DNA from: Novakomyces olei
Taxonomy: Eukaryota
Length of the DNA stretch: 64,000 bases
Direction: 5' to 3'
NCBI GenBank assembly: GCA_016906335.1
Contig: JADEYG010000001.1
Coordinates: 186,001 to 250,000 of the forward strand
Shown: piece after piece, positions 29,998-60,290 of the stretch
Layout of the letters: every line of letters starts with the position of its first letter
Position numbering within the stretch: the first letter of the stretch is position 1
Translations under genes and position numbers: made by a program
The notes under the pieces: model-generated
Told to the model about the DNA's origin: nothing
Databases searched by the model: none
Seen by the model: the letters and a program-made list of their open reading frames with translations, nothing else

Positions 29998-30809
29998 TGC
30001 TGCCTGAGGCATACGATCTGTGGTTTGTCACGCGCTAACACACTTATCTAACGGTAACGTTAATATTACGTAGAAGGATCTAAATATACTAAGCGCTATC
30101 TCGTTGTACGTAAAGTGAGACAAGTAAAACATATAAATGATTGGTCAGGCGAGAAGTCTATCGGTAAAGGATATTGTTAGCATTTTATATTGCAGCAAAG
30201 TTCTTGAAGATAGAATAATTGAATTAGCAACGAACACTAGCTTCAGCTGAATCCCCCAAGAGTTCTGGGAGTTCGCTTGGTCTATATATTTTTATGTATT
30301 GTAAAGTGAGATCCGGTAAACTAAAGTCAAACAACTGACACGCACGTTAGATGTATCTGAATTTGGAAAAGATAAACGAAAGTAGTATGAGGGGATAATA
30401 GGTTCATATTTCAACAGATGTGTTGGCGTTGCCTCTCACCCATACGGGGTTCCTTTTAAAAGTACAAGGCTCTTTCTTGTCTTTGCTGGCGTTGAAAATA
30501 CTCAATTTTAGATTGAATATATATCGAACACCAAAAATAATCATTGAAGCCGAGTTTATTTTTTATCTTATTTGTATAATGTATAAAAGAACGGGATTGC
30601 GAAAAAATCTTCACTCTGAATCATATGGCTCTTTAGCAAAAGCAGCAACGTTGCCAAAAATAGCATTCATTGTTCGGTTATGATTAATTTTCATTTTCAA
30701 GAGGACCAAAATCGCAGATTAACAAGCGCAGAGTAACAAGCGAGCATACAATGCTTTTAGTTTCGCCTTCTGCTTTCTGGATATCCATCGATATCTGAAT
30801 TTGGCTCAG

Positions 30810-32865
30810 CTTGTACTAATATCTTTGTTTCAAAGCCTCATTTTAGAAACAGAAATACAAGAGCAAACCAAATAAACAAGCACAAGAAAGAAGATAGAAA
30901 AACCATTATTTCTAACGATTTCTAGTTTTTAGTGCCTTCAGAGTAACCAGAAATCGCTCTCTCCAGAAAAGTTGGCCAGTTTGCAACTTTTCTAGTGAGA
31001 GGGGTGTTTGGTTACAACACTCCCCGGCCAGCGATGATCGACAGTCACCGCTGACCTACCTTGTATATTTAAAAGAAACAAATCAACAAAGAAACAAAAT
31101 CGTGAAGAACAATCCAAAACAAAAAACAAAAAAAAAAAACACAGATGAAAGTACCGCATGCACAAGGCTAGAAGCACGGGATTTAAAAAAGAGCAAATCT
31201 TTAGAAGTAAAATAAGAACTGAAACCAAAAAAAAAATAAAAAAAATAAAAAAAAATAATAAAATAAAGTAACAACACAACGCCAGAGCAAAAATTGCGTT
31301 TTTATGAACTGTAGTTTGCCTGAATTTGTTTTTGACTTTCGTTGAAGTAATTGTTTTTGTTGTCTTTCGATGTGTGAGATTTTTGTCTTTTTTCTACAGG
31401 CATTATCTTTTTTTATTCGTCGTTTATTTAACAAAAAAGAAATATGCCCATTTCGCCGCCTTTAAGCATCGAACCCAAGCATCCGCATGATCACGAGAGA
31501 GCAATTTGTTGGATTTTTGGATTTTTGGATTTTTGTATTTTTGTATTTTTGGATTTTTGTATTTTTGTATTTTTGTATTTTTGGATTTTTGTATTTTTGT
31601 ATTTTTGTATTTTTGTATTTTTGTATTTTTGTATTTTTGTATTTTTGTATTTTTGTATTTTTGTATTTTTGTATTTTTGTATTTTTGTATTTTTGTATTT
31701 TTGTATTTTTGTATTTTTGTATTTTTGTATTTTTGTATTTTTGTATTTTTGTATTTTTGTATTTTTGTATTTTTGGATTTTTGTATTTTTGTATTTTTGT
31801 ATTTTTGTATTTTTGTATTTTTGTATTTTTGTATTTTTGTATTTTTGTATTTTTGTATTTTTGTATTTTTGTATTTTTGTATTTTTGTATTTTTGTATTT
31901 TTGTATTTTTGTATTTTTGTATTTTTGTTATTTTTGTATTTTTGTATTTTTGTATTTTTGTATTTTTGTATTTTTGTATTTTTGTATTTTTGTATTTTTG
32001 TATTTTTGTATTTTTGTATTTTTGTATTTTTGTATTTTTGTATTTTTGTATTTTTGTATTTTTGTATTTTTGTATTTTTGTATTTCTTGTACTAATATCT
32101 TTCAAAGCCTGATTTCAGAATTAGAAATACAAGAGCAAACCAAATAAACAAGCACAAGAAAAAACATAGAAAAACCATTATTTCTAACGATTTCTAGTTT
32201 TTAGTGTCATCAGATTAACCAAAAATCACTCTCTCCAGAAAAGTTGGCCAGTTTGCAACTTTTCTAGTGAGAGGGGTGTTTGGTTACAACACTCCCCGGC
32301 CAGCGATGATCGACAAATGTCACCGCTGACCTACCTTGTATATTTAAAAGAAACAAATCAACAAAGAAACAAAATCGTGAAGAACAATCCAAAACAAAAA
32401 ACAAAAAAAAAACACAGATGAAAGTACCACATGCACAAGGCTAGAAGCACGGGATTTAAAAAAGAGCAAATCTTTAGAAGTAAAATAAGAACTGAAACAA
32501 AAAAAAAAATAAAAAACAAAAAAACAAAAAAACAAAAAAACAAAAAAACAAAAAAACAAAAAAACAAAAAAACAAAAAAACAAATAAACAAAAAAACATA
32601 AAAACAAAAAAAAACACACACACACAACGACAGAGAAACAAAAATGCACTTTTATGAACTGCATTTTGCCTGAATTTGTTTTTGAATTTCGTTGAAGTAA
32701 TTGTTTTGTTGTCTCTCGATGTGCGTGATTTTCGTCTTTTTTCTACAGGCATTATCCCTTTTTTTTGTCTTTTTATTAAAAAAAGAAACATACCAATTGC
32801 GCCGCGTGAAACGACAATGGCATCGAAGCCGAGCATCCGCATGATCTCGAGAAAACAATTTGTTA
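30810..32865 (+). repeat. Internal direct duplication of a ~700-bp unit (30810-31510 and 32087-32865) separated by a microsatellite
   Basis: Both copies begin cttgtactaatatcttt...gaaatacaagagcaaaccaaataaacaagcacaag and run to gcatgatc.cgaga.a.caatttgtt; only one copy in the right arm (~59160-59850). Confidence 0.9.
31511..32085. repeat. (TTTTTGTA)n 8-bp tandem array, ~70 units, with occasional TTTTTGGA
   Basis: Directly visible. Confidence 0.97.
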
Positions 32866-33429
32866 AACAAAACCTCTTGGCGCTTTTATATTGGTAATTC
32901 AGACATTCAGTTCTTTTTCTTGTAAAATCAGACAGACAATCGTTGCTTTTTGTTGCTTTTCTTTTTTCTTTTTTCTTTTTCCTATTTTGTTTATTTTTGT
33001 TTATTTTTAGTTTTTGTTTTGATTTGTAGACCAGACATTCAGTTTTGTTTTTGTTTTTGTTCTCGTAAAAACAGACCCGCTTTTTTTTTTGGGTTTGTTA
33101 TTCAGACATTTGATTTTTTATTTTTTTATTATTTTTTGTGTTTTAGTTTATTTTAGTTTCATTAATCAGACAGATTTTTGTTTTTGTTGGTTTTTTTTTT
33201 GTTTTTTTTTGTTTTGTTTCTTATTTTGCGTTCTCGGTTTGTTATGCTATTCAGAAAATCTGAATTTTGTTTTGTTTTTTTTTTGTTTTTTTTTGTTTTG
33301 TTGATTTTGTTGATTTTGTTGGGTTATATTTGTTTTTTTTGTCTTTTGTTCGTTTTTTGCATTTTTGCATTTTTTCTATGCTATTTCTTTTTGACTTTTT
33401 GAAATTCTGGTCCCCCTGTTCCCTTTAGT

Positions 33430-36400
33430 TTTATTTCTTTTTTTTTGCGTCTTTATTCTTATGTTTTTTGCTTATTTGCCTCTTTGCCTCTTTGCCTATT
33501 TGCTTCTTTGCTTCTTTGCTTCTTTGCTTCTTTGCTTATTTGCTTATTTGCTTCTTTGCTTCTTTGCTTCTTTGCTTCTTTGCTTCTTTGCTTCTTTGCT
33601 TCTTTGCTTCTTTGCTTCTTTGCTTCTTTGCTCCTTTGCTTCTTTGCTTTTTTGCTTCTTTGCTTTTTAGCTCCTTTGCTTTTATAGTTTTTTTCTTTCT
33701 TTGCTCTTCTGCTTGTTTGCTTTTTTGCTTTTATTGCTTTTTAGCTTCTTTGTTATTTTGCTTTTTTGCTTTTTTGCTTTTTTGCTTCTTTCTTTGCTAT
33801 TTCATTTTGGTTCTTTGTGTTTTTGGTCCCCCTGTTCCCTTCAGTTTAAGTTCTATTTTTTTGCTTCTTAGCTTTTTTGATTCTTTGCTTTTTTGCTAAT
33901 CTTCTTTTTTGCTCCTTTGCTTTCTTTGCTTTTTTGCTTTCTTTGCTCTTTGCTTCTTTGTTATTTTGCAATTTTGCATTGCTTTTTTGCTTTTTTGCTT
34001 TTTTGCTATTTTGCATTGCTATTTTGCTTCTTTGCTTTTTTGTTATTTTGCATTGCTTTTTTGCTTTTTTGCTTTTATTGCTTTTTAGCTTCTTTGTTAT
34101 TTTGCAATTTTGCATTGCTTTTTCGCTTCTTTGCTTTTTTGCTATTTTGCATTGCTTTTTTGCTTCTTTGTTATTTTGCTTCTTTGTTATTTTGCTTTTT
34201 TTCTTTCTTTGCTCTTCTGCTTTTTTGCTTTTTTACTTTTTTTCTTTTGTCGCTTCTTTGCTTTTTTGATTTTTTGGTTTTGCTTTTTTTGCTTTGCTTT
34301 TTTTTTTGCAATACCCTTCTTTGCTTTTTTGCTTCTTTGCTTTTCTGCTTGATTGCTTGATTGCTTTTTTGGTTCTTTCTTTGCTATTTCATTTTGGTTC
34401 TTTGTGTTTTTGGTCCCCCTGTTCCCTTTATGTTTTAGTTCTTCTTTTTGCTTCTTTGCTTTTTTGCTTTTTAGATTCTTTGCTTCTTTGTTATTTTGCT
34501 TCTTTGTTATTTTGCTTTTTTGCTTTTCAGCTTCTTTGCTATTTTGCATTGCTTTTTTGGTTCTTTGCTTTTTTGCTAATCTTCTTTTTTGCTCCTTTGC
34601 TTTTATAGTTTTTTGCTTTCTTTGCTTTTTTGCTTTTCAGCTTCTTTGCAATATTGCTTCTTTGCTTCTTTGCTAATCTTCTTTTTTGCTCCTTTGCTTT
34701 TATAGTTTTTTTCTTTCTTTGCTCCTTTGCTTTCTTTTCTTTTTTGCTTTTTTGCTTTTATTGCTTTTTAGCTTCTTTGTTATTTTGCTTCTTTGTTATT
34801 TTGCAATTTTGCATTGCTTTTTTGCTCCTTTGCTTTTTTGCTCCTTTGTTATTTTGCTTTTCAGCTTCTTTGCTATTTTGCATTGCTTTTTTGGTTCTTT
34901 GCTTTTTTGCTAATCTTCTTTTTTGCTCCTTTGCTTTTATAGTTTTTTTCTTTTTTTGCTCCTTTGCTTTCTTTGCTTTTTTGCTTTCTTTGCTCTTTGC
35001 TTCTTTGTTATTTTGCAATTTTGCATTGCTTTTTTGCTTTTTTGCTTTTTTGCTTTTTTGCTTTTTTGCTTTTTTGCTTTTTTGCTTTTTTGCAATATTG
35101 CTTTTTTGCTTTTTTGCAATATTGCTTCTTTGCTTTTATAGTTTTTTGCTTTCTTTGCTCTTTGGCTTCTTTACTTCTTTGCTTTCTTTTCTTTTTTGCT
35201 TTTTTGCTTTTATTGCTTTTTAGCTTCTTTGTTATTTTGCTTCTTTGTTATTTTGCTTTTCAGCTTCTTTGCTATTTTGCATTGCTTTTTTGGTTCTTTG
35301 CTTTTTTGCTAATCTTCTTTTTTGCTCCTTTGCTTTTATAGTTTTTTTCTTCCTTTCCTCCTTTGCTTTCTTTGCTTTTTTGCTTTTTTGCTAATCTTCT
35401 TTTTTGCTCCTTTGCTTTTATAGTTTTTTGCCTTCTTTGCTCTTTGGCTTCTTTACTTCTTTGCTTTCTTTTCTTTTTTGCTTTTTTGCTTTTATTGCTT
35501 TTTAGCTTCTTTGTTATTTTGCTTCTTTGTTATTTTGCAATTTTGCATTGCTTTTTCGCTTTTTTGCTTTTTTGCTTTTTTGCTTTTTTGCTTTTTTGCT
35601 TTTTTGCTAATCTTCTTTTTTGCTTCTTTGCTTTTATAGTTTTTTGCTTTCTTTGCTCTTTGGCTTCTTTGCGTCTTTGCTTTCTTTTCATTTTTGCTTT
35701 TTTGCTTTTTTGCTTTTTTGCTTTCTTTGCTCTTTGCTTCTTTGTTATTTTGCAATTTTGCATTGCTTTTTTGCTTTTTTGCTTTTTTGCTTTTTTGCTT
35801 TTTTGCTTTTTTGCTTTTTTGCAATATTGCTTTTTTGCTTTTTTGCTCTTTGGCTTCTTTGCGTCTTTTCTTTCTTTTCATTTTTGCTTTTTTGCTTTTT
35901 TGCTTTCTTTGCTCTTTGCGTCTTTGTTATTTTGCAATTTTGCATTGCTTTTTTGCTTCTTTGTTTTTTTGCTATTTTGCATTGCTTTTTTGCTTCTTTG
36001 CTTTTTTGTTATTTTGTATTGCTTTTTTGCTTTTTTGCTTTCTTTGCTCTTTGCGTCTTTGTTATTTTGCAATTTTGCATTGCTTTATTGCTTCTTTGCT
36101 TTTTTGCTATTTTGCATTGCTTTTTTGCTTCTTTGCTTTTTTGTTATTTTGTATTGCTTTTTTGCTTTTTTGCTTTTTTGCTTTCTTTGCTCTTTGCGTC
36201 TTTGTTATTTTGCAATTTTGCATTGCTTTTTTGCTTCTTTGCTTTTTTGCTATTTTGCATTGCTTTTTTGCTTCTTTGCTTTTTTGTTATTTTGTATTGC
36301 TTTTTTGCTTTTTTGCTTTTTTGCTTTCTTTGCTCTTTGCGTCTTTGTTATTTTGCAATTTTGCATTGCTTTTTTGCTTCTTTGCTTTTTTGCTATTTTG

Positions 36401-37460
36401 CATTGCTTTTTTGCTTCTTTGCTTTTTTGTTATTTTGTATTGCTTTTTTGCTTTTTTGCTTTTTTGCTAATCTTCTTTTTTGCTCCTTTGCTTTTATAGT
36501 TTTTTGCTTTCTTTGCTTTTTTGCTTTTCAGCTTCTTTGCTATTTTGCATTGCTTTTTTGGTTCTTTGCTTTTTTGCTAATCTTCTTTTTGGCTCCTTTG
36601 CTTTTATAGTTTTTTGCTTTCTTTGCTTTTTTGCTTTTCAGCTTCTTTGCAATATTGCAATATTGCTTCTTTGCTAATCTTCTTTTTTGCTCCTTTGCTT
36701 TTATAGTTTTTTTCTTTCTTTGCTCCTTTGCTTTCTTTTCTTTTTTGCTTTTTTGCTTTTTTGCTTTTTTGCTTTTTTGCTTTTTTGCTTTTTTGCTTTT
36801 TTGCTTTTTTGCTTTTTTGCAATATTGCTTCTTTGCTAATCTTCTTTTTTGCTCCTTTGCTTTTATAGTTTTTTTCTTTCTTTGCTCCTTTGCTTTCTTT
36901 GCTTTTTTGCTTTTTTGCTAATCTTCTTTTTTGCTCCTTTGCTTTTATAGTTTTTTGCTTTCTTTGCTCTTTGGCTTCTTTACTTCTTTGCTTTCTTTTC
37001 TTTTTTGCTTTTTTGCTTTTTTGCTTTTTTGCTTTTTTGCTTTTTTGCTTTTTTGCTTTTTTGCTAATCTTCTTTTTTGCTTCTTTGCTTTTATAGTTTT
37101 TTGCTTTCTTTGCTCTTTGGCTTCTTTGCTTCTTTGCTTTCTTTTCTTTTTTGCTTTTTTGCTTTTATTGCTTTTTAGCTTCTTTGTTATTTTGCTTCTT
37201 TGTTGTTTTGCTTTTTTTCTTTCTTTGCTCTTCTGCTTGTTTGCTTGTTTGCTTTTTTGGTTCTTTCTTTGCTATTTCATTTTGGTTCTTTGTGTTTTTG
37301 GTCCCCCTGTCCCCTTTATGTTTTAGTTCTTCTTTTTGCTTCTTTGCTTTTTTGCTTTTCAGCTTCTTTGCTATTTTGCATTGCTTTTTTGGTTCTTTGC
37401 TTTTTTGCTAATCTTTTTTTTCGCTCCTTTGCTTTTATAGTTTTTTGCTTTCTTTGCTTT
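33430..37460. repeat. T-rich complex satellite of TTTTTTGC/TTCTTTGC monomers and recurring higher-order modules
   Basis: Recurring modules such as gctaatcttcttttttgctcctttgcttttatag, gttattttgcaattttgcattgc and ttttggtccccctgttccct. Confidence 0.95.
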
Positions 37461-37904
37461 CTTTGCACTTTTTTATTTTTCCGCATTTTTGCGATTTCGT
37501 TTTGTCGCTTCTTTTGCTTTTTTAGCTTTCTTGTTTTTTTGTTTATATTGTTATATTGTTCTGTTGTTGTTTTTTTTGTGTTTTTTGTGTTTTGCCTTTT
37601 CGGCTTGATTTTTATATTCAGACATTCGTTGCTTTTTGTTTTTTTCTTCTATTTTTGTTAGTCATAGGAAACTTACCGTTTTGGTCGCTGCAAGGCAATG
37701 GCATCAAAGCCAGCATTCGCATGATTCTGATAAAAACCATCCTTGACCCAAACCTTTTGGTGTTCTTAAAAGACAAAGAGAGAAAGAAAGAAAGAAAGAA
37801 AGAAAGAAAACCAGCATATCATGGCACAATACACCATTTATCAGCTCGGTTGGCTTTGGTCAAGCCACAAATCGACAAAGCGACAAAAACCAAGCAAGCA
37901 AATC

Positions 37905-38570
37905 AAGCAACCAATAGCAAAGCAGACTCATAACAGCGATTTCAAGGAGCCCAGTTTCTCAAATTTTCATGTAAGCAAGCATCATAGAGCCACCGACGGT
38001 AAGGTTGAAAACATGAACTAAGCAGACAAAACGTGGTCACGTGAGGCTATGGAGGTGAAACTAGCATGATTTAAATACACAGCATCATAGAGAGCACAGA
38101 TCCGATCAAAGAAACGAGAAACAAGCAAACAAAACTGTTAAGCAACCAGTAGCAAAGCAGACTCATAACAGCGATTTCAAGGAGCCCAGTTTCTCAAATT
38201 TTCATGTAAGCAAGCATCATAGAGCCACCGACGGTAAGGTTGAAAACATGAACTAAGCAGACAAAACGTGGTCACGAGAGGCTATGGAGGTGAAACTAGC
38301 ATGATTTAAATACACAGCATCATAGAGAGCACAGATCCGATCAAAGAAACGAGAAACAAGCAAACAAAACTGTTAAGCAACCAGTAGCAAAGCAGTCTCA
38401 TAACAGCGATTTCAAGGAGCCCAGTTTCTCAAATTTTCATGTAAGCAAGCATCATAGAGTCACGGTAAGGTCGAAAACATGAAATAAGCAGACAAAACGC
38501 GGTCACGTGAGGCTATGGAGGTGAAACTAGCATGAAATACACAGCATCATATAGAACACTGATCAAACTA
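37905..38570 (+). repeat. 235-bp tandem repeat, ~2.8 copies (left arm)
   Basis: agcagWctcataacagcg recurs at 37921, 38156 and 38391 (period 235). Confidence 0.95.
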
Positions 38571-40728
38571 AAGGAACACCCGACAATTTGAGATAAAATG
38601 AAAAAGAGGCATAAAGGTAAAGAAAATTCAAAGTGATCAACGCGTAAAATAGTGAAAGAAAAAGAAAAAAACGCGTTCAGAAGTCGACTTTTACACACAG
38701 CCGTGAGTTAAAGACTTGAAGTAGAAAGAAAGATATTGAAAGCGTTTTATAGACGCGTCATGCTGTGAAACGCCCTCTTTAGAGTCGTGATAACTCGAGG
38801 TTATTGTGGCCCTCTGCTTTGTTTTTGGTCAGGAAGAAGTACGCGAAAGCAGCCGCTTTATATATTTTACGCCAGAGAGAAAACCCTTGACACATACGTG
38901 GTGGATAACGCGGTTTTCAAGAATACGTTTCCCGTTTCAGTCGTCATAGCAACGCTACCGTATAAGTGTCATAAGCCCTAAACCATGCTTTTCTGCCAAA
39001 TATCATCTGCCTAAGTTACGCTGGGGGCCGGGCCAATTCGGACTTTATTGTCTGTGGATGATGCAGATGGCACGAAGTATCAGGCCTCCAAAAGACAATA
39101 AGGCGGGAAAATTCCCGTCTGTTGGACACATATATCGTCGCTATACGATAGATTTGATTTCAACACATCTTTCTATATTATCTGCTGTCCAAAAAGTAGC
39201 AACACAAAATACGATAATCAAGTTTGTCCGCCTCTGTCCACCTGTTGCTTAGTACTCGACAATAAGTCTTTGCCCAAAATAATCAAATAAACAATCAATA
39301 CAATTAATTACGTCACGCGTCACGGGCTTAACATTGTAAACACCTTCTTACCTTCCGTTGCTCCGTAGTTGCTCCGTGGTTCGCCTCGACATCAAGAGCC
39401 AAGCATACATGCATAACTGAAGTCCCCAAAGCGTTCTGCATGTACGAGGCGCCTCAATGGATCGCATACTGCACATCTTCAAGCGCATTCAAGCAAATAA
39501 CGGGCTTTGTGTAATCTAGCCAAAAAGTAGCAATCCTGGAAGCCCAACGACTAAACAGGTACTCGTCCTGGGCCAGGTCAATGACGACGCCAGCACGGCC
39601 TCTCCATTGCATAGTGCCGCCCTTATTAAAAGTGCTGCTCAAATCAGTAGACACGTGCACTGCTTCAATGTTCGTTTGCAGCATACAATCTAGAATTTCC
39701 GCTGGAATTTACGCTTTGTTCCAAGGGCGCATCCCAAAAAGCCCACATACAGGCGGCATAAAACCAGAACACTTACAGCAAGGTACAACACAAGACAGAA
39801 GAAAGAGAACAACCTGGTCTAGAAAGCAGTTTCAAGCCATTACCCTTCTAATCTATTCTTTGAGCGTGAAAAGCAAGCCAACTTCGTCGTCTATCTCTGT
39901 TACAAATCAGCAGTAATTGCATTGGTGTTCTGAAATCACGGCTTTCAAAAAAGAACAATTTCTGAATGCCTATGAGTACATTATTTTCGTTTATCTTCCG
40001 CGAGAGCCATTAGCAAAGCATATATATGTTGAATCGAGATTTTACAACAATGACGCTAAACGACATATACAATGTATATCCAGAAAGTCAACCGTATGTT
40101 ATTGTCAATGAAAATATATCAGAGCATTCAGCAAGCTACAACAAAAACAAAGCTTTCCTTCTGATTAAAGTAAAATTTTGATAACCATAACATCTTAAGA
40201 TTTCTTTTTGAAAATTTTCTCAAAAATCTGAAAACGTTCTGCAAATTCAAATATACCCAGGGGGCACGAAGACTGACTGTTGCGAAGTATTGCCCAATTA
40301 TAGCAAACAGCATTATAAAAGGCTAAATACAGGCCGAGAGTTTGAATCGGGACCTCAGTCAAACCAAGACCTTTCAAAGGTAAGAAAGTGACAACAGAAA
40401 AAGGACATTACTGGCAATAAATAGAGTTGAAAGCCTAGTATTTAGAACATTAAAAATGGCCGTGAAAATAAAAATATTGAGAAAAAAATGTTTGAAATTA
40501 AGAGAACACAGAAAACAAGTCAATAAGTTACGAGGAAGAGGTAATGTTTCATAGAGTAAGCATTTAGATAAGCTCAATTTAAGCCTGATATAACGTGGAG
40601 GCTCAAACTGAATCTTTGTGAAACTGCAAATATAAATTCGCGCCCGCAAATAACATTGACTCCTGAGACCAAAAACAATAAAAAGCAAAAATAGAAGCAT
40701 AATCAAAAAATGACAAAAAAAAACAGAA

Positions 40729-40759
<31 letters not shown>

Positions 40760-41243
40760 CAACTATAATGCAGTAATTGAGGCGGATAAGTTCTAGATGA
40801 AAAGACATTTCAATCTTGCCAAGTCCTAGAGCACCTTAACCCTTAAGTTCACAATTTGCCGCGCCACATTGGAATGTCTTCTCTAACGTGTTGCACAAAG
40901 TCGCAAGATATCTTTTAAAACATTGACGTATGAGGGAAAATGCCGCGGAAAAGTCAACTACGAGCGACTTTGCACGGCTTTGGGCCAAAAGTCTCGGCGG
41001 ATCCGTCACGAGTAAGCAAGTTGATTTGGATTTGGATTTGGATTTACTATTTATTTATTTATATTCATATTTCAATAGTACATAATTGTGCTGCTTGCTA
41101 TACTTTTGCTGTAGTATTACACGCTGGCTTTATTTAGTTTTCTAATTACTTTCCTGCTTTTCCCAGTACATTTTGTTGAATTATTTAAGTTATGTTGAAG
41201 TTCGAACGGCTGATTATCTGACTGTAGAAAAGAATGTAAAGGT

Positions 41244-41314
41244 CCCCCCCCCCCCCCCCCCCCCCCCCCAAGGCTCAGAGGCGCTGTCAGGGATATATAT
41301 ATATATATATATAT
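41244..41314. repeat. C26 homopolymer followed by (AT)11
   Basis: C run 41244-41269 and AT run 41293-41314 read directly. Confidence 0.9.
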
Positions 41315-41547
41315 CTTGTAGAGGGAGAATGTAGAATTTAGAGGAGATTTCAGTAAGTAAAGTATAGACAGAATTATCCATTAACGACAGTGATTATTTC
41401 AAATAATAATGGCAAGACACTGCTACCGCGTACCGCGGTACTGGATGGTCCTTATTAATACGAACGAGCACATTATTTCTATTAGTATTATTCATTCATT
41501 ATCTATAATATATCTTCGAGCAGATATGGCGCATGTTTTAACCTGAA

Positions 41548-47358: not shown

Positions 47359-47371
47359 CTTATCGCTTATC
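47359..47371 (-). promoter_or_regulatory. Tandem GATAAG sites upstream of GLN1 (candidate nitrogen GATA-factor sites)
   Basis: cttatcgcttatc ~350 bp upstream of the GLN1 ATG, plus another GATAAG near 47599; GATA control of nitrogen genes is established in fungi, but function here is inferred. Confidence 0.4.
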
Positions 47372-48827: not shown

Positions 48828-49034
48828 TGCGATTTGTGACTTGTAATCATCCCCCGTTTACGATATTGATATACACTTTACTTTTTTTGGGCGCCAATTT
48901 GACTAGGGCTAGTTATAAAGCCCTGGTATACACATATTCATATAAACATGCCGAATAACAGAGGGTTATGAGCTGCTATGATCAATTTGCTTCAATCATA
49001 GGAAAAATCAATGCTAAATGACTTTATAAATAAT

Positions 49035-49877
49035 CTATTTCTTCATAGTATCTGCCAAAACTGCTGTCTTGGCATCATTGATCAATCGATCTATGCCTTT
49101 CCCCGCTTCTGAATAAACCTTTTCCACATCTCTTTTAAAATCGTTCACTAGATTAGCGCTCACTTTTTTATTTTTAAGTGTGCTCCATGTCTTTTGTACA
49201 GCTTGTCGCTGGTTTCGCAGCCGTGTTCTTAATGTCTCGCCAAACTTTGCGATATCATTGGTTAAAGCAACTCTTGATTCTCTTGTAGGCACCGGGAGAG
49301 GAATGACCAGCCCATTTGGATTTGCAGGCATGGGCTGAGGATTGAATCCTGGTATCTCTGCCACGATTGTGCGGCTAATTGGTTTAACGTAATCAGGATC
49401 ATAGCATGCAAGCTGAATCCTTCGCCCATCCACAGCAGTTATTGACGCCAGAGTCGAAAAGGAATAGACTTTGTCGCCTTGCGGTAATTTAATTGAAAGT
49501 CGCTCCAGTGCTTCTGCCTTGGATGCTGTAGCATTGCGCATTCCTTGCAAATGTTTTTCTCCCTGCTTTAATAAATCATTTGCCTCTGACTCCAACATTT
49601 CCATATTTATGAGCGAGCCAAGATCTACCAGTTCACCCGATTCGTCATCTTCCTTGGTGCTGCTTCCATGTTTTTTCCCGCCCGAACCGCGCTTGTCGCT
49701 TTTTTTAGCGCATGGAGGGCTTATGTGGAGTAAGGCACAATTTGTCATTGAAGTAGAGCTCTCATTTGCCCATCGGAAATTATTTGAATTGTTTGTGTTC
49801 AGCACAGAAAGATTTGCGCCAGCCGGGCTTAGGCTCCTGCAATCTATGCGCAGAATCGGCCTCAGTCGCCTAATCAT
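49035..49877 (-). CDS. RRF1: Mitochondrial ribosome recycling factor
   Basis: Presequence; LASI....GRRI..YDP..VKPI, FNPQP, VIPLPVPTRESR, LRNQRQ RRF pattern. Confidence 0.8.
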   Translation of the reverse strand: MIRRLRPILRIDCRSLSPAGANLSVLNTNNSNNFRWANESSTSMTNCALLHISPPCAKKSDKRGSGGKKHGSSTKEDDESGELVDLGSLINMEMLESEANDLLKQGEKHLQGMRNATASKAEALERLSIKLPQGDKVYSFSTLASITAVDGRRIQLACYDPDYVKPISRTIVAEIPGFNPQPMPANPNGLVIPLPVPTRESRVALTNDIAKFGETLRTRLRNQRQAVQKTWSTLKNKKVSANLVNDFKRDVEKVYSEAGKGIDRLINDAKTAVLADTMKK

Positions 49878-50437
49878 TTTGTGGGCTTCGAAGTTGATGA
49901 CAAAATTTAATGCACTACAGATTGTGTATTCTTTTTACCATAGTATTTTATTTTTTTATCTATTTTTTAATTATTATCATAAACTCGAATAATTATTTAA
50001 CAGCACCTTATAGCATTACCCTTAGGGTTACATCTCTGGCGAAATTGAGCAAGATAAGAGTCTAAACTATGGCAGATCAGAGATAGTAAAATAGTTTCTA
50101 GTAGTTCAAAGGAGTTTGCCGCATTTCATTCTCAAGACTATAAAATATAAGGCAATTTAGGCTAAGCTTTGTTAAAGCAAGCACGTTGTACTATTATTAA
50201 ACTATACGTGGTCTTTGATTCGACGGCGTTTTCCTTGTGAATGCGCCTTGGGCACCTGGCTTTCATCAAACACCAGACTATGTTTGCTCCGCTCACTATA
50301 AGGCGTTGTTAGCGAAAGGCTTGCAGGAGGCATGAATAGTACTCATATAAATAAAAATACATGAAACGTTGAATGTGGATTTTAAAACATGAAAATAAAG
50401 ATAAAAACTCAAATTGTAACATGTATTTGAAGAAGAG

Positions 50438-51800
50438 CTAGTACTTCCTGGTTTTCGTTTCGTGCGAATTGAAATTGCGCGGAAGAAAATGCATTTCTTT
50501 GGGCAAGCATTCCACTGGACTCGCGCTAAAGTAAGTTGAGCGGAGTGCCTGCCCGGCTGTTATCCTCCGGCGCGGATCATATGTCAAAAAGGATTGTAAC
50601 AGATGTACAGCCGCTTCACCATAGGAGCGGAATTTCTTTTCCAAAAGGCTGCTTCGCCGGTTAAAGTTTAATTGTAAGGAACGGCTCCCTGGTAGTAAAT
50701 GAAACCCCGGCCAAATTCCCTCGTGGGGGGCACCAAGTAAAGATGCTATTAAATCAAACTCTTCCCGTTCATTGTCTCCTGGAAATAAAGGATTGCCGGT
50801 CAGTAGCTCCGCCATGGCACAGCCCAAACTCCACATATCGCAAGAACAATCGTACTGATCTGAATCAAGTAACAGTTCCGGCGATCGGTACCAAATTGTG
50901 ACGACGCGAGGCGTCATTCTTTCCTGACCTGCTGTGGGAAACGAACGCGCCATACCAAAATCCGCTAAGACATTTAGAGTCAGGACATTAAATAATTTAA
51001 ATTGCCAAAAATTGATTATGCCAAGAGATTAGAAAAGTCCGTACCAATCTTCAAAGTGCCGTCCATTGTTATTAAAAGGTTTGACATTTTTAAATCGCTA
51101 GAAAATAGTCAACAATACAAGAACAAGATGTACGGGAGAAAACTATACCGATGCACGACTTTATTTTCGTGCAGATATGCTGTACCCAGCAAAAGTTGCT
51201 TCAATAGACATTTTGCTGACGCTCAGTATACACACACAGTTTTCTTGTACCTTCTGAAGCTGTAAACCGGACACGTTCATCATCGAGCAACCGACCCAGA
51301 TCCTATCGGTTTAGTGCATGTGTGCATTCATGCATGACACATACCTGGTAACACCATTCCATAACAAGAGCAATTTCGTCAAGCGACCGGCCACACGCGA
51401 CTTGGGACACGTGCACGATATTCGGGTGTTTAAGAGAACGTAGCAATGAAACTTCCCGAATTGACGTCATAGATATGCCGTTACCACGGCTTTGATCGTG
51501 CGTAGGGATCCTCAGCGCCTTCAGAGCAATAACATTTCCCGATTTTTGCATACGCGCCCGGCTATTTCAGATTCAAAGATCAGAATTGGAATAGGAGTAA
51601 ACGAAATTACTAGACGACACCGTAGGCTAATTAATGCGAGTTTAGTAATTCAATCTAAATGATGTATGACTTTACGTACTGCCTTCGCCTACAACACGCT
51701 TGTCGTAAAAATCGGCGTCCAAATCCAGATTTCCGACTAGAATAGGCTGATCGGATAAGGCACGACGCTCTCCCGTAACAGAGACCATCGTTTGCGCCAT
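50438..51800 (-). CDS. CDK10/CDK11-family cyclin-dependent kinase (multi-intron, with a 16-nt micro-exon at 51611-51626)
   Basis: VGEGT/YGVV/YRAR, GISMTSIRE, WCYQDL, HRDLKMSN, DFGMAR, MTPRVVTIWYRSPELLL. Confidence 0.9.
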
Positions 51801-51988
51801 CACATCAAGCGTATCCTTTACCAACGCCGTATTTCCTCCAGGATACACGTCCTCCCAATATACTGTATATTTTGCATACTTTATTGATATATGCGAGTTA
51901 TATTATATATATTAATAAGAAAAAAAAATAGATAGTTTTAAAATATCATTAGCATTATATAATATAGAGCTGCTGCTGCAAAGACGGT

Positions 51989-52602
51989 ATGGCAAAGACA
52001 CTTAGCGAGAACGTTGGCGAAACAGCAAAAGAGATTAGCGGGGACGATAGGAAAGTTTCGCTCAGTGACATATCTAGCTATAGCGATTTACAAAAAGCTT
52101 GGGCGCGTTCGCCACTTGGCGCGTGGGCTGCCGCCTCGACGTGTAAGTGTCTTGTGCAGTGCATACACGCTTTACGCTAAACTTTAAAGTATTTCTTGGT
52201 TTACCGCGCTCGTTGGTTCCGAGTCTACGTACACCAAGCCAGCCATCGTTTGCGTCTGCGCTTTGCTTTTCTGCAATTTTTGGAGGATCTGGGTAAGGTA
52301 GCGCTAGCTTGCTCACGGTTGTGCTAATGTGATTCTAAAGTTATTTGACGGCCACTGGAGGTAAGGCATGATTATCCATAGTGAAGACTTATGCCACAGA
52401 TTATGAAAATGGCTCAGGTCTAATGTCGGGTATGCCGTATTCTCGGTTTGAGCAACCGCTAATGTAGACAGCCTGGTCAGCGGCATACTTGCTCGTGCAC
52501 GGGAAAAGTGCCGTGAAAGCGTTGAAACCGGTCCCGTTAGCCATGGCGGCGTTAAGTGCGGCTAATGCGACGATGTACGGCCAAGACTACTTTGGATACT
52601 AG
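51989..52602 (+). CDS. AIM19: Aim19-like small mitochondrial membrane protein (multi-intron)
   Basis: Spliced product ...FSAIFGGSG/YLTATG/DYENGSGLMS/AWSAAYLLVHGK..KPVPLAMAALSAANATMYG; GT-AG introns. Confidence 0.65.
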
Positions 52603-52752
52603 GTGCGTTTCGTAGTTACGCCTTGGGCTGTATTGCCTGGAAGGAATGAATAATTATTTAATCAATTACCTTTTGAAGGGTTTGCTGTGCTCATAAACGG
52701 GAAAAGAAATAGAATAGCTCATCAATAGTAAATTACATAAAATGTCGTATGG

Positions 52753-53073
52753 TCATTGCTCTTTTTTCGCCGTGTCGTTGTCACTAGATTCAGTCATCGC
52801 CGCGTAAACCCAACCTCCTAAAACAATATTTGCCACCAACGCAGCAAATATAGCGGCATGCGTTGTCTGGTAAGCTAAGCTTGTCAGCAATCTTCACTTT
52901 TTGGAGTATCGAGAAATATTACGTTCAAACAATAGGGCTAAAGAAGCAAAATAGCATCCGATTGGTAAGACTATCATTGCAATCGTGAACGAGAAAACTT
53001 TGAAAAGAACAGAGGGCGGAACATTAATGCTTTGCCGTGTTTCCACACCGCTGTCTTTGGCCGTCGTATCCAT
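52753..53073 (-). CDS. VMA21: V-ATPase assembly factor Vma21 (1 intron)
   Basis: VPPSVLFKVFSFTIAMIVLPIGCYF...AAIFAALVANIVLGGWVYAAM, C-terminal KKEQ* dilysine ER-retrieval signal. Confidence 0.88.
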
Positions 53074-53338
53074 TAGATCGAATATGAAACTCGACTCGAG
53101 CGCCAAAATACCGTTTGCCCCACGCGCAATATTTCAAATCTTTATGATGCGTCTTTTTGTATATACGAATATATATTGCTTGCCGGATTCTGACATGTAT
53201 TATTGTGCATTTATGATTTCCAGCGATTTATGCTCTACAATATGAAATGTATTGGGAAATGCAAAGTAAATAAAGCCAGCGTGTCATTTGTATAGCAAGC
53301 TGTACAATTATATTTTACTATAGAAATTAATGAATATA

Positions 53339-53339
<1 letters not shown>

Positions 53340-53401
<62 letters not shown>

Positions 53402-53403
53402 AT
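53340..53403. repeat. (TAAA)n microsatellite at the inner edge of the right-arm core
   Basis: Directly visible; the left arm has (GGATTT)n plus a short (ATTT)n at the equivalent position. Confidence 0.9.
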
Positions 53404-53673
53404 CCAAATCAACTTGCTTACTCGTGACGGATCCGCCGAGACTTTTGGCCCAAAGCCGTGCAAAGTCGCTCGTAGTTGACTTTTCCGCGGCATTTTCCCT
53501 CATACGTCAATGTTTTAAAAGATATCTTGCGACTTTGTGCAACACGTTAGAGAAGACATTCCAATGTGGCGCGGCAAATTGTGAACTTAAGGGTTAAGGT
53601 GCTCTAGGACTTGGCAAGATTGAAATGTCTTTTCATCTAGAACTTATCCGCCTCAATTACTGCATTATAGTTG

Positions 53674-53704
<31 letters not shown>

Positions 53705-55864
53705 TTCTGTTTTTTTTTGTCATTTTTTGATTATGCTTCTATTTTTGCTTTTTATTGTTTTTGGTCTCAGGAGTCAATGTTATTTGCGGGCGCGAATTTA
53801 TATTTGCAGTTTCACAAAGATTCAGTTTGAGCCTCCACGTTATATCAGGCTTAGATTGAGCTTATCTAAATGCTTACTCTATGAAACATTACCTCTTCCT
53901 CGTAACTTATTGACTTGTTTTCTGTGTTCTCTTAATTTCAAACATTTTTTTCTCAATATTTTTATTTTCACGGCCATTTTTAATGTTCTAAATACTAGGC
54001 TTTCAACTCTATTTATTGCCAGTAATGTCCTTTTTCTGTTGTCACTTTCTTACCTTTGAAAGGTCTTGGTTTGACTGAGGTCCCGATTCAAACTCTCGGC
54101 CTGTATTTAGCCTTTTATAATGCTGTTTGCTATAATTGGGCAATACTTCGCAACAGTCAGTCTTCGTGCCCCCTGGGTATATTTGAATTTGCAGAACGTT
54201 TTCAGATTTTTGAGAAAATTTTCAAAAAGAAATCTTAAGATGTTATGGTTATCAAAATTTTACTTTAATCAGAAGGAAAGCTTTGTTTTTGTTGTAGCTT
54301 GCTGAATGCTCTGATATATTTTCATTGACAATAACATACGGTTGACTTTCTGGATATACATTGTATATGTCGTTTAGCGTCATTGTTGTAAAATCTCGAT
54401 TCAACATATATATGCTTTGCTAATGGCTCTCGCGAAAGATAAGCGAAAATAATGTACTCATAGGCATTCAGAAATTGTTCTTTTTTGAAAGCCGTGATTT
54501 CAGAACACCAATGCAATTACTGCTGATTTGTAACAGAGATAGACGACGAAGTTGGCTTGCTTTTCACGCTCAAAGAATAGATTAGAAGGGTAATGGCTTG
54601 AAACTGCTTTCTAGACCAGGTTGTTCTCTTTCTTCTGTCTTGTGTTGTACCTTGCTGTAAGTGTTCTGGTTTTATGCCGCCTGTATGTGGGCTTTTTGGG
54701 ATGCGCCCTTGGAACAAAGCGTAAATTCCAGCGGAAATTCTAGATTGTATGCTGCAAACGAACATTGAAGCAGTGCACGTGTCTACTGATTTGAGCAGCA
54801 CTTTTAATAAGGGCGGCACTATGCAATGGAGAGGCCGTGCTGGCGTCGTCATTGACCTGGCCCAGGACGAGTACCTGTTTAGTCGTTGGGCTTCCAGGAT
54901 TGCTACTTTTTGGCTAGATTACACAAAGCCCGTTATTTGCTTGAATGCACTTGAAGATGTGCAGTATGCGATCCATTGAGGCGCCTCGTACATGCAGAAC
55001 GCTTTGGGGACTTCAGTTATGCATGTATGCTTGGCTCTTGATGTCGAGGCGAACCACGGAGCAACTACGGAGCAACGGAAGGTAAGAAGGTGTTTACAAT
55101 GTTAAGCCCGTGACGCGTGACGTAATTAATTGTATTGATTGTTTATTTGATTATTTTGGGCAAAGACTTATTGTCGAGTACTAAGCAACAGGTGGACAGA
55201 GGCGGACAAACTTGATTATCGTATTTTGTGTTGCTACTTTTTGGACAGCAGATAATATAGAAAGATGTGTTGAAATCAAATCTATCGTATAGCGACGATA
55301 TATGTGTCCAACAGACGGGAATTTTCCCGCCTTATTGTCTTTTGGAGGCCTGATACTTCGTGCCATCTGCATCATCCACAGACAATAAAGTCCGAATTGG
55401 CCCGGCCCCCAGCGTAACTTAGGCAGATGATATTTGGCAGAAAAGCATGGTTTAGGGCTTATGACACTTATACGGTAGCGTTGCTATGACGACTGAAACG
55501 GGAAACGTATTCTTGAAAACCGCGTTATCCACCACGTATGTGTCAAGGGTTTTCTCTCTGGCGTAAAATATATAAAGCGGCTGCTTTCGCGTACTTCTTC
55601 CTGACCAAAAACAAAGCAGAGGGCCACAATAACCTCGAGTTATCACGACTCTAAAGAGGGCGTTTCACAGCATGACGCGTCTATAAAACGCTTTCAATAT
55701 CTTTCTTTCTACTTCAAGTCTTTAACTCACGGCTGTGTGTAAAAGTCGACTTCTGAACGCGTTTTTTTCTTTTTCTTTCACTATTTTACGCGTTGATCAC
55801 TTTGAATTTTCTTTACCTTTATGCCTCTTTTTCATTTTATCTCAAATTGTCGGGTGTTCCTTTA

Positions 55865-56765
55865 GTTTGATCAGTGTTCTATATGATGCTGTGTATTTCA
55901 TGCTAGTTTCACCTCCATAGCCTCACGTGACCGCGTTTTGTCTGCTTATTTCATGTTTTCGACCTTACCGTGACTCTATGATGCTTGCTTACATGAAAAT
56001 TTGAGAAACTGGGCTCCTTGAAATCGCTGTTATGAGACTGCTTTGCTACTGGTTGCTTAACAGTTTTGTTTGCTTGTTTCTCGTTTCTTTGATCGGATCT
56101 GTGCTCTCTATGATGCTGTGTATTTAAATCATGCTAGTTTCACCTCCATAGCCTCACGTGACCACGTTTTGTCTGCTTAGTTCATGTTTTCAACCTTACC
56201 GTCGGTGGCTCTATGATGCTTGCTTACATGAAAATTTGAGAAACTGGGCTCCTTGAAATCGCTGTTATGAGTCTGCTTTGCTACTGGTTGCTTAACAGTT
56301 TTATTTGCTTGTTTCTCGTTTCTTTGATCGGATCTGTGCTCTCTATGATGCTGTGTATTTAAATCATGCTAGTTTCACCTCCATAGCCTCACGTGACCAC
56401 GTTTTGTCTGCTTAGTTCATGTTTTCAACCTTACCGTCGGTGGCTCTATGATGCTTGCTTACATGAAAATTTGAGAAACTGGGCTCCTTGAAATCGCTGT
56501 TATGAGTCTGCTTTGCTACTGGTTGCTTAACAGTTTTATTTGCTTGTTTCTCGTTTCTTTGATCGGATCTGTGCTCTCTATGATGCTGTGTATTTAAATC
56601 ATGCTAGTTTCACCTCCATAGCCTCACGTGACCACGTTTTGTCTGCTTAGTTCATGTTTTCAACCTTACCGTCGGTGGCTCTATGATGCTTGCTTACATG
56701 AAAATTTGAGAAACTGGGCTCCTTGAAATCGCTGTTATGAGTCTGCTTTGCTATTGGTTGCTTGA
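55865..56765 (-). repeat. 235-bp tandem repeat, ~3.8 copies (right arm)
   Basis: Paired coordinates sum to 94433 on one side of the array and 94668 on the other, a shift of exactly one extra 235-bp unit. Confidence 0.95.
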
Positions 56766-57179
56766 TTTGCTTGCTTGGTTTTTGTCGCTTTGTCGATTTG
56801 TGGCTTGACCAAAGCCAACCGAGCTGATAAATGGTGTATTGTGCCATGATATGCTGGTTTTCTTTCTTTCTTTCTTTCTTTCTTTCTCTCTTTGTCTTTT
56901 AAGAACACCAAAAGGTTTGGGTCAAGGATGGTTTTTATCAGAATCATGCGAATGCTGGCTTTGATGCCATTGCCTTGCAGCGACCAAAACGGTAAGTTTC
57001 CTATGACTAACAAAAATAGAAGAAAAAAACAAAAAGCAACGAATGTCTGAATATAAAAATCAAGCCGAAAAGGCAAAACACAAAAAACACAAAAAAAACA
57101 ACAACAGAACAATATAACAATATAAACAAAAAAACAAGAAAGCTAAAAAAGCAAAAGAAGCGACAAAACGAAATCGCAA

Positions 57180-58440
57180 AAATGCGGAAAAATAAAAAAG
57201 TGCAAAGAAAGCAAAGAAAGCAAAAAACTATAAAAGCAAAGGAGCGAAAAAGAAGATTAGCAAAAAAGCAAAGAACCAAAAAAGCAATGCAAAATAGCAA
57301 AGAAGCTGAAAAGCAAAAAAGCAAAGAAGCAAAATAACAAAGAAGCAAAATAACAAAGAAGCAAAATAACAAAGAAGCAAAATAACAAAGAAGCAAAGAA
57401 TCTAAAAAGCAAAAAAGCAAAGAAGCAAAAAGAAGAACTAAAACATAAAGGGAACAGGGGGACCAAAAACACAAAGAACCAAAATGAAATAGCAAAGAAA
57501 GAACCAAAAAAGCAAACAAGCAAACAAGCAGAAGAGCAAAGAAAGAAAAAAAGCAAAACAACAAAGAAGCAAAATAACAAAGAAGCTAAAAAGCAATAAA
57601 AGCAAAAAAGCAAAAAAGAAAAGAAAGCAAAGAAGCAAAGAAGCCAAAGAGCAAAGAAAGCAAAAAACTATAAAAGCAAAGAAGCAAAAAAGAAGATTAG
57701 CAAAAAAGCAAAAAAGCAAAAAAGCAAAAAAGCAAAAAAGCAAAAAAGCAAAAAAGCAAAAAAGCAAAAAAGCAAAAAAGCAAAAAAGCAAAAAAGCAAA
57801 AAAGCAGAAGAGCAAAGAAAGAAAAAAAGCAAAATAACAAAGAAGCTAAATAACAAAGAAGCTAAAAAGCAATAAAAGCAAAAAAGCAAAAAAGCAAACA
57901 AGCAGAAGAGCAAAGAAAGAAAAAAAGCAGAAGAGCAAAGAAAGAAAAAAAGCAAAAAAGCAAAAAAGCAGAAGAGCAAAGAAAGAAAAAAAGCAAAATA
58001 ACAAAGAAGCTAAATAACAAAGAAGCTAAAAAGCAATAAAAGCAAAAAAGCAAAAAAGCAAAAAAGCAAAAAAGCAATACAAAATAACAAAAAAGCAAAG
58101 AAGCAAAAAAGCAATGCAAAATAGCAAAAAAGCAAAAAAGCAAAAAAGCAAAAAAGCAAAAAAGCAAAAAAGCAAAAAAGCAAAAAAGCAAAAAAGCAAA
58201 AAAGCAAAAAAGCAAAAAAGCAAAAAAGCAAAAAAGCAAAAAAGCAAAAAAGCAAAAAAGCAAAAAAGCAAAAAAGCAAAGAAGCGACAAAAGAAAAAAA
58301 GTAAAGAAGCGAAAAAGAGAAAAATCAAAGAAGTATAAAATAGAACTAAAACTAAAGGGAACACGGGGATTAAAAACACAAAGAACCAAAATGAAGTAGC
58401 AAAGAAAGAACCAAAAAGGTAAAAATGCAAAAAAAACTCT
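57180..58440. repeat. A-rich complex satellite (GCAAAAAA/GCAAAGAA)n, the shorter counterpart of 33430-37460
   Basis: Reverse complement of the left-arm satellite modules. Confidence 0.93.
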
Positions 58441-58480
58441 AACAAACTAAAAACTAGAAAACAAAGAAGAACAAAAAAAA

Positions 58481-58825
58481 CAAAATCAACAAAATCAACA
58501 AAATCAACAAAATCAACAAAATCAACAAAATCATCAAAATCATCAAAATCATCAAAATCATCAAAATCAACAAAATCAACAAAATCATCAAAATCAACAA
58601 AATCAACAAAATCAACAAAATCAACAAAATCATCAAAATCGACAAAATCAACAAAATCAACAAAATCAACAAAATCAACAAAATCAACAAAATCATCAAA
58701 ATCATCAAAATCATCAAAATCATCAAAATCAACAAAATCAACAAAATCAACAAAATCAACAAAATCAACAAAATCGACAAAATCAACAAAATCAACAAAA
58801 TCAACAAAATCAACAAAATCAACAA
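58481..58825. repeat. (AAAATCAWC)n 9-bp tandem array, ~38 units
   Basis: Directly visible; the left arm has only ~2-3 units at ~33296-33320. Confidence 0.95.
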
Positions 58826-60290
58826 CAAAAAAAATAAAAACAAAGAAACCAGATTGTCTGAATAACAAAACAAAACCAAAACGCAAAAGTATAAACGAAA
58901 CAAAAAACCCAACAAAAACTAAAATTACTGAATTTCTTAATAAAGAAACTCAACTAAACTGAATTAAAATAAAATAAAACCAAAAGAAACAAAAACAACT
59001 GGATGTCTGATTTACAAAGCAAAATAAAAACCAAAAAATTAAAATAAAAACAAAAACAAAATTGAAAAGCAACAAAAGGTAACGAATGTCTGTCTGATTT
59101 TACAAGAGAAAGAACTGGATGTCCGAATTACAAAAAAGTTACTGGGAGGTTTTGGTTAACAAATTGTTTTCTTGTGATCCTGCGGATGCTCGCTTCGATG
59201 CCATTCCTGTTTCAGGTGGCGAAATTGGTATGTTTTTTTTTATTAAAAAGACAAATAAAAAAGGATTATGCCTGTAGAAAAAAGACGAGAATCCCACACA
59301 TTGAAAGAACATTGCTTCAACGAAATCCAAAAACAAATTCAGGCAAACTACAGTTCGTAAAGACGCATTCTTTCGCTGGCGTTGTGTTGTTGTTTTATTT
59401 TGTTTTATTTTTTATTTTTAATTTTTAATTTTTGGTTTCAGTTCTTATTTTACTTCTTGAGATTTTTTTTTTTTAATCCCATGCTTCTAGCCTTGTGCAT
59501 ATGGTACTTCCAGCTGTGTTTTTTCTTTTTTTTTTTTTTGTTTTGGATTTTTCTTCACGATTTTGTTTCTTTGTTGATTTGTTTCTTTAAAATATACAAG
59601 GTAGGTCAGCGGTGACATTTGTCGATCATCGCTGGCCGGGGGAGTGTTGTAACCAAACACCCCTCTCACTAGAAAAGTTGCAAACTGGCCAACTTTTCTG
59701 GAGAGAGCGATTTTTGGTTACTCTGAAGGCACTAAAAACAAGAAATCGTTAGAAATAATGGTTTTTCTATCTTCTTTCTTGTGCTTGTTTATTTGGCTTG
59801 CTCTTGTATTTCTGTTTCTAAAATGGGCTTTGATACAAAGGTATTAGTGCAAGCTTAGCCAAATTCAGATATCGATGGATATCCAGAAAGCAGAAAGCTT
59901 AACTAAAAGCATTGTCTACTCGCTTGTTACTCTACGCTTGTTAATCTGCGATTTGGTCCTCTTGAAAATGAAAATTAATAACCGAGCAATGAATGCTATT
60001 TTTGGCAACGTTGCTGCTTTTGCTAAAGAGTCATATGACTCAGAGTGAAGATTTCTACGCAAACTAACAAACAAAAAACAAAAAACACTGAAAGTCTGAA
60101 TAACAAAACAAACAAAACGAAAACACAAGAAACCAAATGCATGAACTAAAAAACTAAAAAGACAAAAAAATAGTAACAAATGCCTGGATAGAAAACCAAA
60201 CAAAAGGAACACAAAAACCCAAAAAACCCTGACGTGGATTATTATTGTTTATTCACTTCATGATTCAATCTCCAGTGCTTTATACAATAT

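Follow-up and report, generated by a model that had tools for sequence, protein, structure and literature searches.

In a 64,000-nucleotide (nt) stretch of the genome of Novakomyces olei (contig JADEYG010000001.1, positions 186,001 to 250,000; hereafter the window, in whose numbering all coordinates are given), we found a 12.1-kb block of housekeeping genes enclosed by two long non-coding arms that are inverted copies of each other. The locus is probably a passively invertible block between homogenised inverted repeats, a passive flip/flop region of the kind known from chromosome XIV of Saccharomyces cerevisiae and not a regulated switch.

Extent and identity profile of the inverted repeat

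By repeat search, blastn and local alignment, a left arm at 30597-41140 and a right arm at 53263-60062 form an inverted pair around the enclosed block at 41141-53262. The arms measure about 10.5 kb on the left and about 6.8 kb on the right, a difference that comes from an 8-bp satellite (4.1 kb versus 1.2 kb), one 235-bp unit and a left-side tandem doubling of an outer 1.27-kb unit. The repeat search returned a gap-free pair of 3142 nt, 37905-41046 and 53387-56528, at a rounded value of 100%, within which alignment counts 6 mismatches. By blastn, the inner pair 37905-41062 / 56528-53374 is 99.6% identical over 3159 columns, and the outermost pair, 30597-31510 / 60062-59158, shows 88.8% identity. 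Past an (ATTT)n microsatellite, local alignment follows a weak homology of about 85% for some 80 nt more, up to 41140 / 53263, with a local score of 85 where the highest of 30 shuffles reached 39. The outer arm ends are sharp, both beginning with TTGCG, and the flanks at 30597/60062 carry no target-site duplication. The inverted repeat is far beyond chance. An earlier sequence-only reading of the window had placed the arms and their ends where blastn and the repeat search also find them, and its limits for the core, 41174 and 53244, are about right, given homology that reaches 41140 and 53263.

Identity between the arms is strongly uneven. In bins of 250 nt it stays at 0.996-1.000 from 37150 to 40899, with 0.912 at 36900-37149 on one side and 0.883 at 40900-41149 on the other. 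A middle of 3.9 kb is about 99.8% identical, compared with 77-91% in the outer part (77-84% in the satellite) and about 85% at the inner edge. On the left arm the near-identical zone runs from 37150 to 41033; it holds indels of 235 nt and 96 nt, and between 38570 and 41033 the arms differ at only 4 positions. The zone is bounded by low-complexity tracts, with old, diverged edges beyond them. Its inner limit is an (AAAT)20 microsatellite at 53324-53403 of the right arm, the left-arm counterpart of which is only 16 nt of (ATTT)n at 41047-41062. Since a lone duplication that aged in place would give even divergence, a near-identical middle with diverged edges points to gene conversion between the arms, not merely to a recent duplication.

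Arm depth and further copies in sequencing-run contigs

We compared the window with four sequencing runs, X1 to X4, all in the form of short-read contigs, with X2 coming from another study. X3 (share 0.18) and X4 (0.00) supplied scattered short pieces only, and we draw no inference from the parts that they leave uncovered; one X4 joint record with 12 unrelated letters was disregarded as another organism's, and there were no other joints. With per-contig k-mer depth taken as a rough guide, the X1 contig that covers the core (42780-53321, 0 differences from the window) has a depth of 1139.8 and marks this part as single-copy, and an arm contig identical to the window at 40794-40986 has a depth of 2227.9, about twice as much. 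In X2, the arm contig 38506-39695 stands at 9.1, against 3.87-5.99 for six core contigs. X1 contigs break where the arms differ: one starts at 39485, directly after the arm-versus-arm mismatch at 39484, and another ends at 40548, 31 nt before that at 40579, so both arm versions are present in X1. The X1 core contig reaches 53321 and hence joins the core, independently of the assembly, to part of the degenerate inverted edge (53263-53321). At 37992, the 235-bp unit of the arms has a depth of about 6.5x in X1, as the two arms alone predict (6.6 copies).

X2 also carries G>A at 40379 and at 40413, both on one contig of depth 9.09. These changes appear to be shared by both arms, which would be a signature of concerted evolution. 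The window thus combines the layout of a flip/flop region, two kb-scale near-identical inverted repeats around a unique gene block, with the pattern of concerted evolution, a near-identical middle between diverged edges together with apparently shared changes in X2; the between-strain part of this pattern comes from one shallow run.

Some stretches occur in more than the two arm versions. At 40794-40986, a diverged X1 version with 15 differences and a depth of 1198.2 accompanies the doubled version with none, and at 39727-39831 a variant accounts for 1345.9 of 3782.9. The stretch 37651-37673 has about 4x depth and two types of variant. Inside the block, the OMS1-like region 41874-41931 occurs in two X1 versions (1234.1 of 2469.3), with a loose end after 42836. 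X2 shows the variants at 40177-40263 and 41874-41931 as well. By depth, arm parts and the neighbouring gene therefore have one or two more diverged copies at other places in the genome. Over 39727-42836, the contigs of X1 and X2 give a second, diverged version that takes in the inner arm and all of the OMS1-like gene, which suggests an OMS1 paralogue or a segmental duplication elsewhere.

Three further sites stood out in the contigs. Just inside the block, 41316-41381 occurs once in the window, reaches about 18x X1 depth at 41365 and is followed by seven contigs that diverge after 41381; it has the look of a short dispersed repeat, perhaps a fragment of a long terminal repeat or of a miniature inverted-repeat transposable element. 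The 43 nt at 51925-51968, unique in the window, have loose ends on both sides and raised depth in X1 and X2, and occur in a different genomic context as well. At 41769 and 42594, the window has T and all X1 and X2 contigs have C, the cause being strain variation or else an erroneous consensus where a paralogue exists.

Anatomy of the arms

The arms have the same modules in the same order over the whole 6.8 kb, and both edges in common. Going inwards from its outer end, each comprises a unit of about 0.9 kb, satellites of 8 or 9 bp, tandem repeats of 235 bp and about 2.5 kb of unique sequence. In the left arm, the outer unit (30597-31510) is followed by a second tandem copy from about 32086, at a spacing of 1.27 kb, and a (ATTTTTGT) array of 73 units (31504-32091) lies between the two. 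A degenerate 8-bp satellite, (TTTTTTGC)n, of about 513 units then occupies 33464-37541, T-rich on the plus strand; it has an 8-nt period, and a weak higher-order period of 143 nt that is not diagnostic. The 235-bp tandem repeat follows at 37905-38564 in 2.8 copies. In the right arm, the outer unit was located by blastn at 59158-60062, the 8-bp satellite is the complement of the left array, (CAAAAAAG)n, with 149 units at 57127-58333, and the 235-bp repeat occupies 55869-56763 in 3.8 copies. An extra 9-bp array, (AACAAAATC), of about 40 units lies at 58470-58825.

The arms are AT-rich, with a GC content of 0.29-0.31 in their satellite parts (29-31% over 30001-38000 on the left) against 0.41-0.47 elsewhere, and they are the sole large gene-free stretches and GC troughs of an otherwise gene-dense window. 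The T-rich strand is mirrored between them, with an AT skew of -0.84 on the left and +0.34 on the right.

Two short motifs recur in the arms. The hexamer ACGCGT occurs at 26 sites in the window, where 9.8 are expected, and each arm has three sites within 120 nt and a fourth 560 nt away (38640-38758 and 39315 on the left, mirrored at 55675-55793 and 55113 on the right). The sites resemble MluI cell-cycle boxes, and the clusters could belong to the promoter of an unannotated transcript in each arm. The motif GTCACGTG, identical to the E-box of the Cbf1/CDEI type, occurs at 7 sites against 0.64 expected; six of the seven are inside 235-bp units (38036, 38502, 55924, 56155, 56390 and 56625), two units of the left arm being among the carriers. 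Just outside the right arm, upstream of a folliculin-domain gene, a perfect (TATAT) array of about 44 units spans 60288-60505.

Neither coding nor structured RNA content was recognised in the arms by the searches made. Among arm open reading frames (ORFs) of at least 60 amino acids (aa), Pfam gave no match above cut-off in 18 of the 21 at 37545-41062 and 2 of the 25 at 30597-33464, the best E-values being 0.027-0.21; the three omitted inner ORFs are in satellite. No transposase, reverse transcriptase, recombinase or other family was therefore recognised among these 20 ORFs, and the arm itself showed no terminal inverted repeats. The same absences had been reported by the sequence-only reading, and for the scanned ORFs and the outer ends they hold. 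The genes and marks of a cargo transposon were likewise lacking: we saw no transposase or recombinase gene in the scanned arm or core ORFs and no outer target-site duplication. A homologue search with a 144-aa arm ORF scored none of 442 candidates. For a 111-aa arm ORF, two matches were retrieved from 1.84 billion proteins and rejected as artefacts, both being long tandem-repeat proteins in which one stretch of 25 residues was matched repeatedly at 11/25 identity. Rfam found 0 families over 28000-62000, and the 64-kb window has 0 tRNA genes. Sites resembling B-boxes, that is, TFIIIC-like sites, were not in excess (10 against 6.3 expected, with 14 of 100 shuffles reaching 10). A 41-nt arm pattern had 0 matches in the Joint Genome Institute (JGI) metagenomes.

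Genes of the enclosed block and its flanks

The block begins and ends with genes transcribed away from the adjoining arm. At the left end is a gene for an OMS1-like S-adenosylmethionine-dependent methyltransferase (41548-42580, plus strand), recognised by Pfam in two ORF pieces. Upstream of this gene, some 200 nt in from the block's left edge, are a 26-nt poly-C tract (41244-41269) and (TA)12 (41292-41315). A 680-aa DUF2009/UPF0652 protein is encoded at 42965-45007 on the same strand. The minus strand carries glutamine synthetase, GLN1 (45573-47048, with introns), which matches solved eukaryotic glutamine synthetases in the PDB; an RRF1-like ribosome recycling factor (49035-49877); a protein kinase of at least two exons (50438-51566); and, at the right end, a VMA21-like gene (52894-53133), the Pfam score of which, 27.8, is just below the cut-off of 29.5. 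Introns split several of these genes. A Pfam scan of 17 of the 47 core ORFs gave no mating-type (MAT) domain, whether HMG, alpha-box or homeodomain, and no recombinase or nuclease gene was found nearby, in core or flanks, by the same means. The gene list of the sequence-only reading therefore stands for OMS1, UPF0652, GLN1, RRF1 and VMA21 and, at the level of a Pkinase domain, for the kinase that it had called CDK10-like; its AIM19 and a small ORF had no Pfam match. Its description of the block as one without MAT genes agrees with the scanned ORFs, and the PhyH gene that it had placed beside the left arm is indeed left of that arm.

Ordinary genes are present on both flanks of the inverted repeat: ATG11, prenylcysteine lyase, trehalase, a GPHR-like protein and PhyH left of the left arm, and a folliculin-domain protein and NOT3 right of the right arm. 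Each arm thereby sits within a divergent gene pair, PhyH (minus) and OMS1 (plus) on the left, VMA21 (minus) and the folliculin-like gene (plus) on the right. The best matches of the DUF2009 protein, in Saitoella, Neolecta and Dipodascopsis, reach only 53-54% identity, and ATG11 has 28 matches, the best of them an unnamed protein at 36%. Judged by such matches, the host belongs to an isolated, early-diverging ascomycete lineage. In the JGI metagenomes, 540 pattern stretches were matched for the DUF2009 protein and none was confirmed.

Discussion

We propose that a long, non-coding, satellite-bearing region between genes was duplicated in inverted orientation long ago, and that its two copies now enclose 12.1 kb of single-copy housekeeping genes. 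Intrachromosomal gene conversion, which we infer from the identity profile, would keep the middle 3.9 kb almost identical, and the edges beyond the low-complexity tracts would drift apart. If the arms exchange sequence, the same recombination can invert the DNA between them: some conversions would resolve as crossovers, the block would flip now and then, and two orientation isomers would result that differ only in their long-range context.

The flip/flop region of S. cerevisiae chromosome XIV contains 15 non-MAT genes in 24 kb between 4.2-kb homogenised inverted repeats; it has undergone repeated re-inversion during evolution, and its orientation stayed stable in the laboratory through about 53,800 mitoses and 950 meioses (Salzberg et al. 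2022, PMC9731477). Its repeats are homogenised within a strain, inversion being an unregulated by-product of exchange (PMC9731477). The N. olei locus is similar in that almost identical, kb-scale inverted repeats surround ordinary non-MAT genes, about seven in 12.1 kb. It differs in its arms, which at 6.8-10.5 kb are gene-free, AT-rich, largely satellite and without a tRNA gene, whereas those of S. cerevisiae start at a tRNA gene and contain two sporulation genes (PMC9731477). Two orientations are documented in S. cerevisiae, against a single assembled orientation here. Rearrangements at the long repeats of Candida albicans reportedly include inversions. Those repeats, too, are long, intrachromosomal and substrates for rearrangement (Todd et al. 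2019, PMC6591007), in a different organism and with different repeat content. The notion of a flip/flop region without MAT genes is consequently less new than the sequence-only reading had assumed, the S. cerevisiae case having been described already (PMC9731477).

Several observations weigh against passive flipping between continually homogenised arms. The near-identity could be the product of a single recent conversion or replacement instead of ongoing exchange, and, with additional diverged copies of arm parts elsewhere, some of the exchange could involve other loci. Nor does the proposal explain why a compact genome so dense in genes retains 17 kb of non-coding satellite DNA. Contig depth does not equal copy number; the assembly may derive from X1, which would leave X2 as the only independent run, and X2 has low depth (about 5x) and seems to be a mixed sample. 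No read or contig spans an arm or its 3.9-kb identical zone, contigs break at the microsatellites, and neither isomers nor inversion were seen; as inversion leaves every short-range junction unchanged, orientation isomers are invisible in short-read contigs.

A different explanation, which we regard as unlikely, is that the locus serves as a centromere or belongs to centromere-linked heterochromatin, with inverted satellite repeats, like the imr/otr repeats of Schizosaccharomyces pombe, around a gene-carrying central domain; homogenisation and flipping would be compatible with it. The arms are the only large gene deserts of the 64 kb and coincide with its deep GC troughs, they are built symmetrically of tandem satellites and 235-bp repeats, and by depth a few extra copies of their parts exist elsewhere, as with the outer repeats of S. 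pombe. Near-identical inverted repeats do surround a core, as in inverted-repeat centromeres, but this core is not gene-free, with at least six conserved protein genes including GLN1. The centromere middles of Candida tropicalis and S. pombe are not known to carry genes. Near-identical inverted arms around a unique middle are shared with the centromeres of Komagataella phaffii, C. tropicalis and S. pombe; in K. phaffii the arms are homogenised and the middle flips by inverted-repeat recombination, leaving its orientation polymorphic, and in S. pombe the inverted symmetry continues into tandem repeats on the outer side (Coughlan et al. 2016, PMC5010909). The central parts of these centromeres bind CenH3 (PMC5010909). 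Where N. olei has 12 kb of conserved genes, however, those middles comprise a mid of 1 kb within a non-transcribed, CenH3-bound region (K. phaffii), a Cse4-binding region of 2-10 kb (C. tropicalis) or a non-repetitive core (S. pombe) (PMC5010909). The K. phaffii centromere region is a transcription coldspot, and we read its description as that of a gene-free middle (PMC5010909). The lack of tRNA genes in the window, of retroelement remains in the scanned arm ORFs and of any B-box-like excess also speaks against a centromere, and the depth of the 235-bp unit, being that predicted for two arms, argues against a genome-wide centromere satellite.

Pneumocystis centromeres of less than 10 kb are reported to span expressed housekeeping genes and to be flanked by heterochromatin (10.1101/2023.05.12.540427). 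The N. olei block resembles these genic regional centromeres of an early-diverging ascomycete as a short housekeeping-gene domain between non-genic flanks, and the best protein matches of the window are likewise to early-diverging ascomycetes. The Pneumocystis centromeres are, though, reported to be without repeats or motifs, whereas the flanks here are large inverted repeats bearing satellites (10.1101/2023.05.12.540427). A more specific and still more doubtful version would be a centromere of so far undescribed architecture, in which S. pombe-like, probably heterochromatic arms enclose a flippable 12-kb domain with active housekeeping genes as in Pneumocystis. If true, it would be intermediate between genic epigenetic centromeres and repeat-flanked regional centromeres.

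The arms might also represent a non-autonomous repeat family, as two insertions or dispersed copies of it, or recurrent segmental duplications, that face each other by chance and recombine mutually and with other copies. The diverged versions at about 1x beside the doubled window version (40794-40986, 39727-39831), the fourfold depth at 37651-37673, the two versions of the OMS1-like region and the recurrence of variants in X2 fit such a family; the dispersed element that the sequence-only reading had offered as its alternative gains partial support, in so far as k-mer depth gives arm parts one or two extra diverged copies. Those copies seem partial, however, and one includes a neighbouring gene, which looks like segmental duplication and not transposition; with the whole module order and both edges common to the arms, and with none of the enzymes, terminal repeats or target-site duplication of a mobile element in the sequence scanned, we think a repeat family quite improbable. 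Very improbable, in our view, is a programmed switch like that at the MAT loci of Ogataea and Komagataella, in which a regulated inversion would alter expression of an end gene through a one-sided position effect. The geometry does fit, since kb-scale identical repeats flank a 12-kb block here and inverted repeats allow 19 kb to invert in Ogataea polymorpha or 138 kb in K. phaffii (PMC5720833, PMC5010909), and the outer arms are unequal (4.1 kb versus 1.2 kb of satellite), so that the two sides are not fully equivalent. In those yeasts, however, nitrogen starvation induces the inversion, which swaps the MAT locus placed under centromeric or telomeric repression (PMC5720833, PMC5010909). Here the end genes encode a methyltransferase and VMA21 and not MAT proteins, no MAT-type domain turned up in the Pfam scan of 17 of the 47 core ORFs, the cargo is housekeeping, the same kinds of repeat lie on both sides, recombinase and nuclease genes are lacking nearby, and within 4 kb we see no asymmetric silencer. 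In a flipped block, OMS1 and VMA21 would keep their own upstream DNA followed by the same 3.9 kb of arm, so a position effect must act over more than 4 kb. The proposal of an invertible segment in the sequence-only reading is therefore supported by the homogenised repeat as far as a potential for inversion, which we infer, and not as a regulated switch. Satellites and near-identical repeats are hard to assemble, and satellite lengths and 235-bp copy numbers come from the assembly alone. Even so, a false inverted duplication or a collapsed or expanded repeat is scarcely credible: arm contigs reach about twice the core k-mer depth in X1 and X2, runs of two different studies, X1 contigs break at arm differences, one X1 contig joins the core to the diverged edge at 53263-53321, and the arms differ structurally, unlike fold-back artefacts.

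If the block does flip passively between its homogenised arms, as we consider probable, it would be the second clear example, in a very remote yeast lineage, of genes other than MAT lying as a block between homogenised inverted repeats. Meiotic recombination is suppressed by such regions in heterozygotes, and concerted evolution acts at them for reasons unexplained in Saccharomyces too. As the arms of N. olei are gene-free, selection on duplicated genes cannot be why they are homogenised, and the puzzle becomes sharper. Within the window, the arms are moreover the strongest candidates for DNA of a centromeric or heterochromatic nature, in a lineage for which no centromere appears to have been described.

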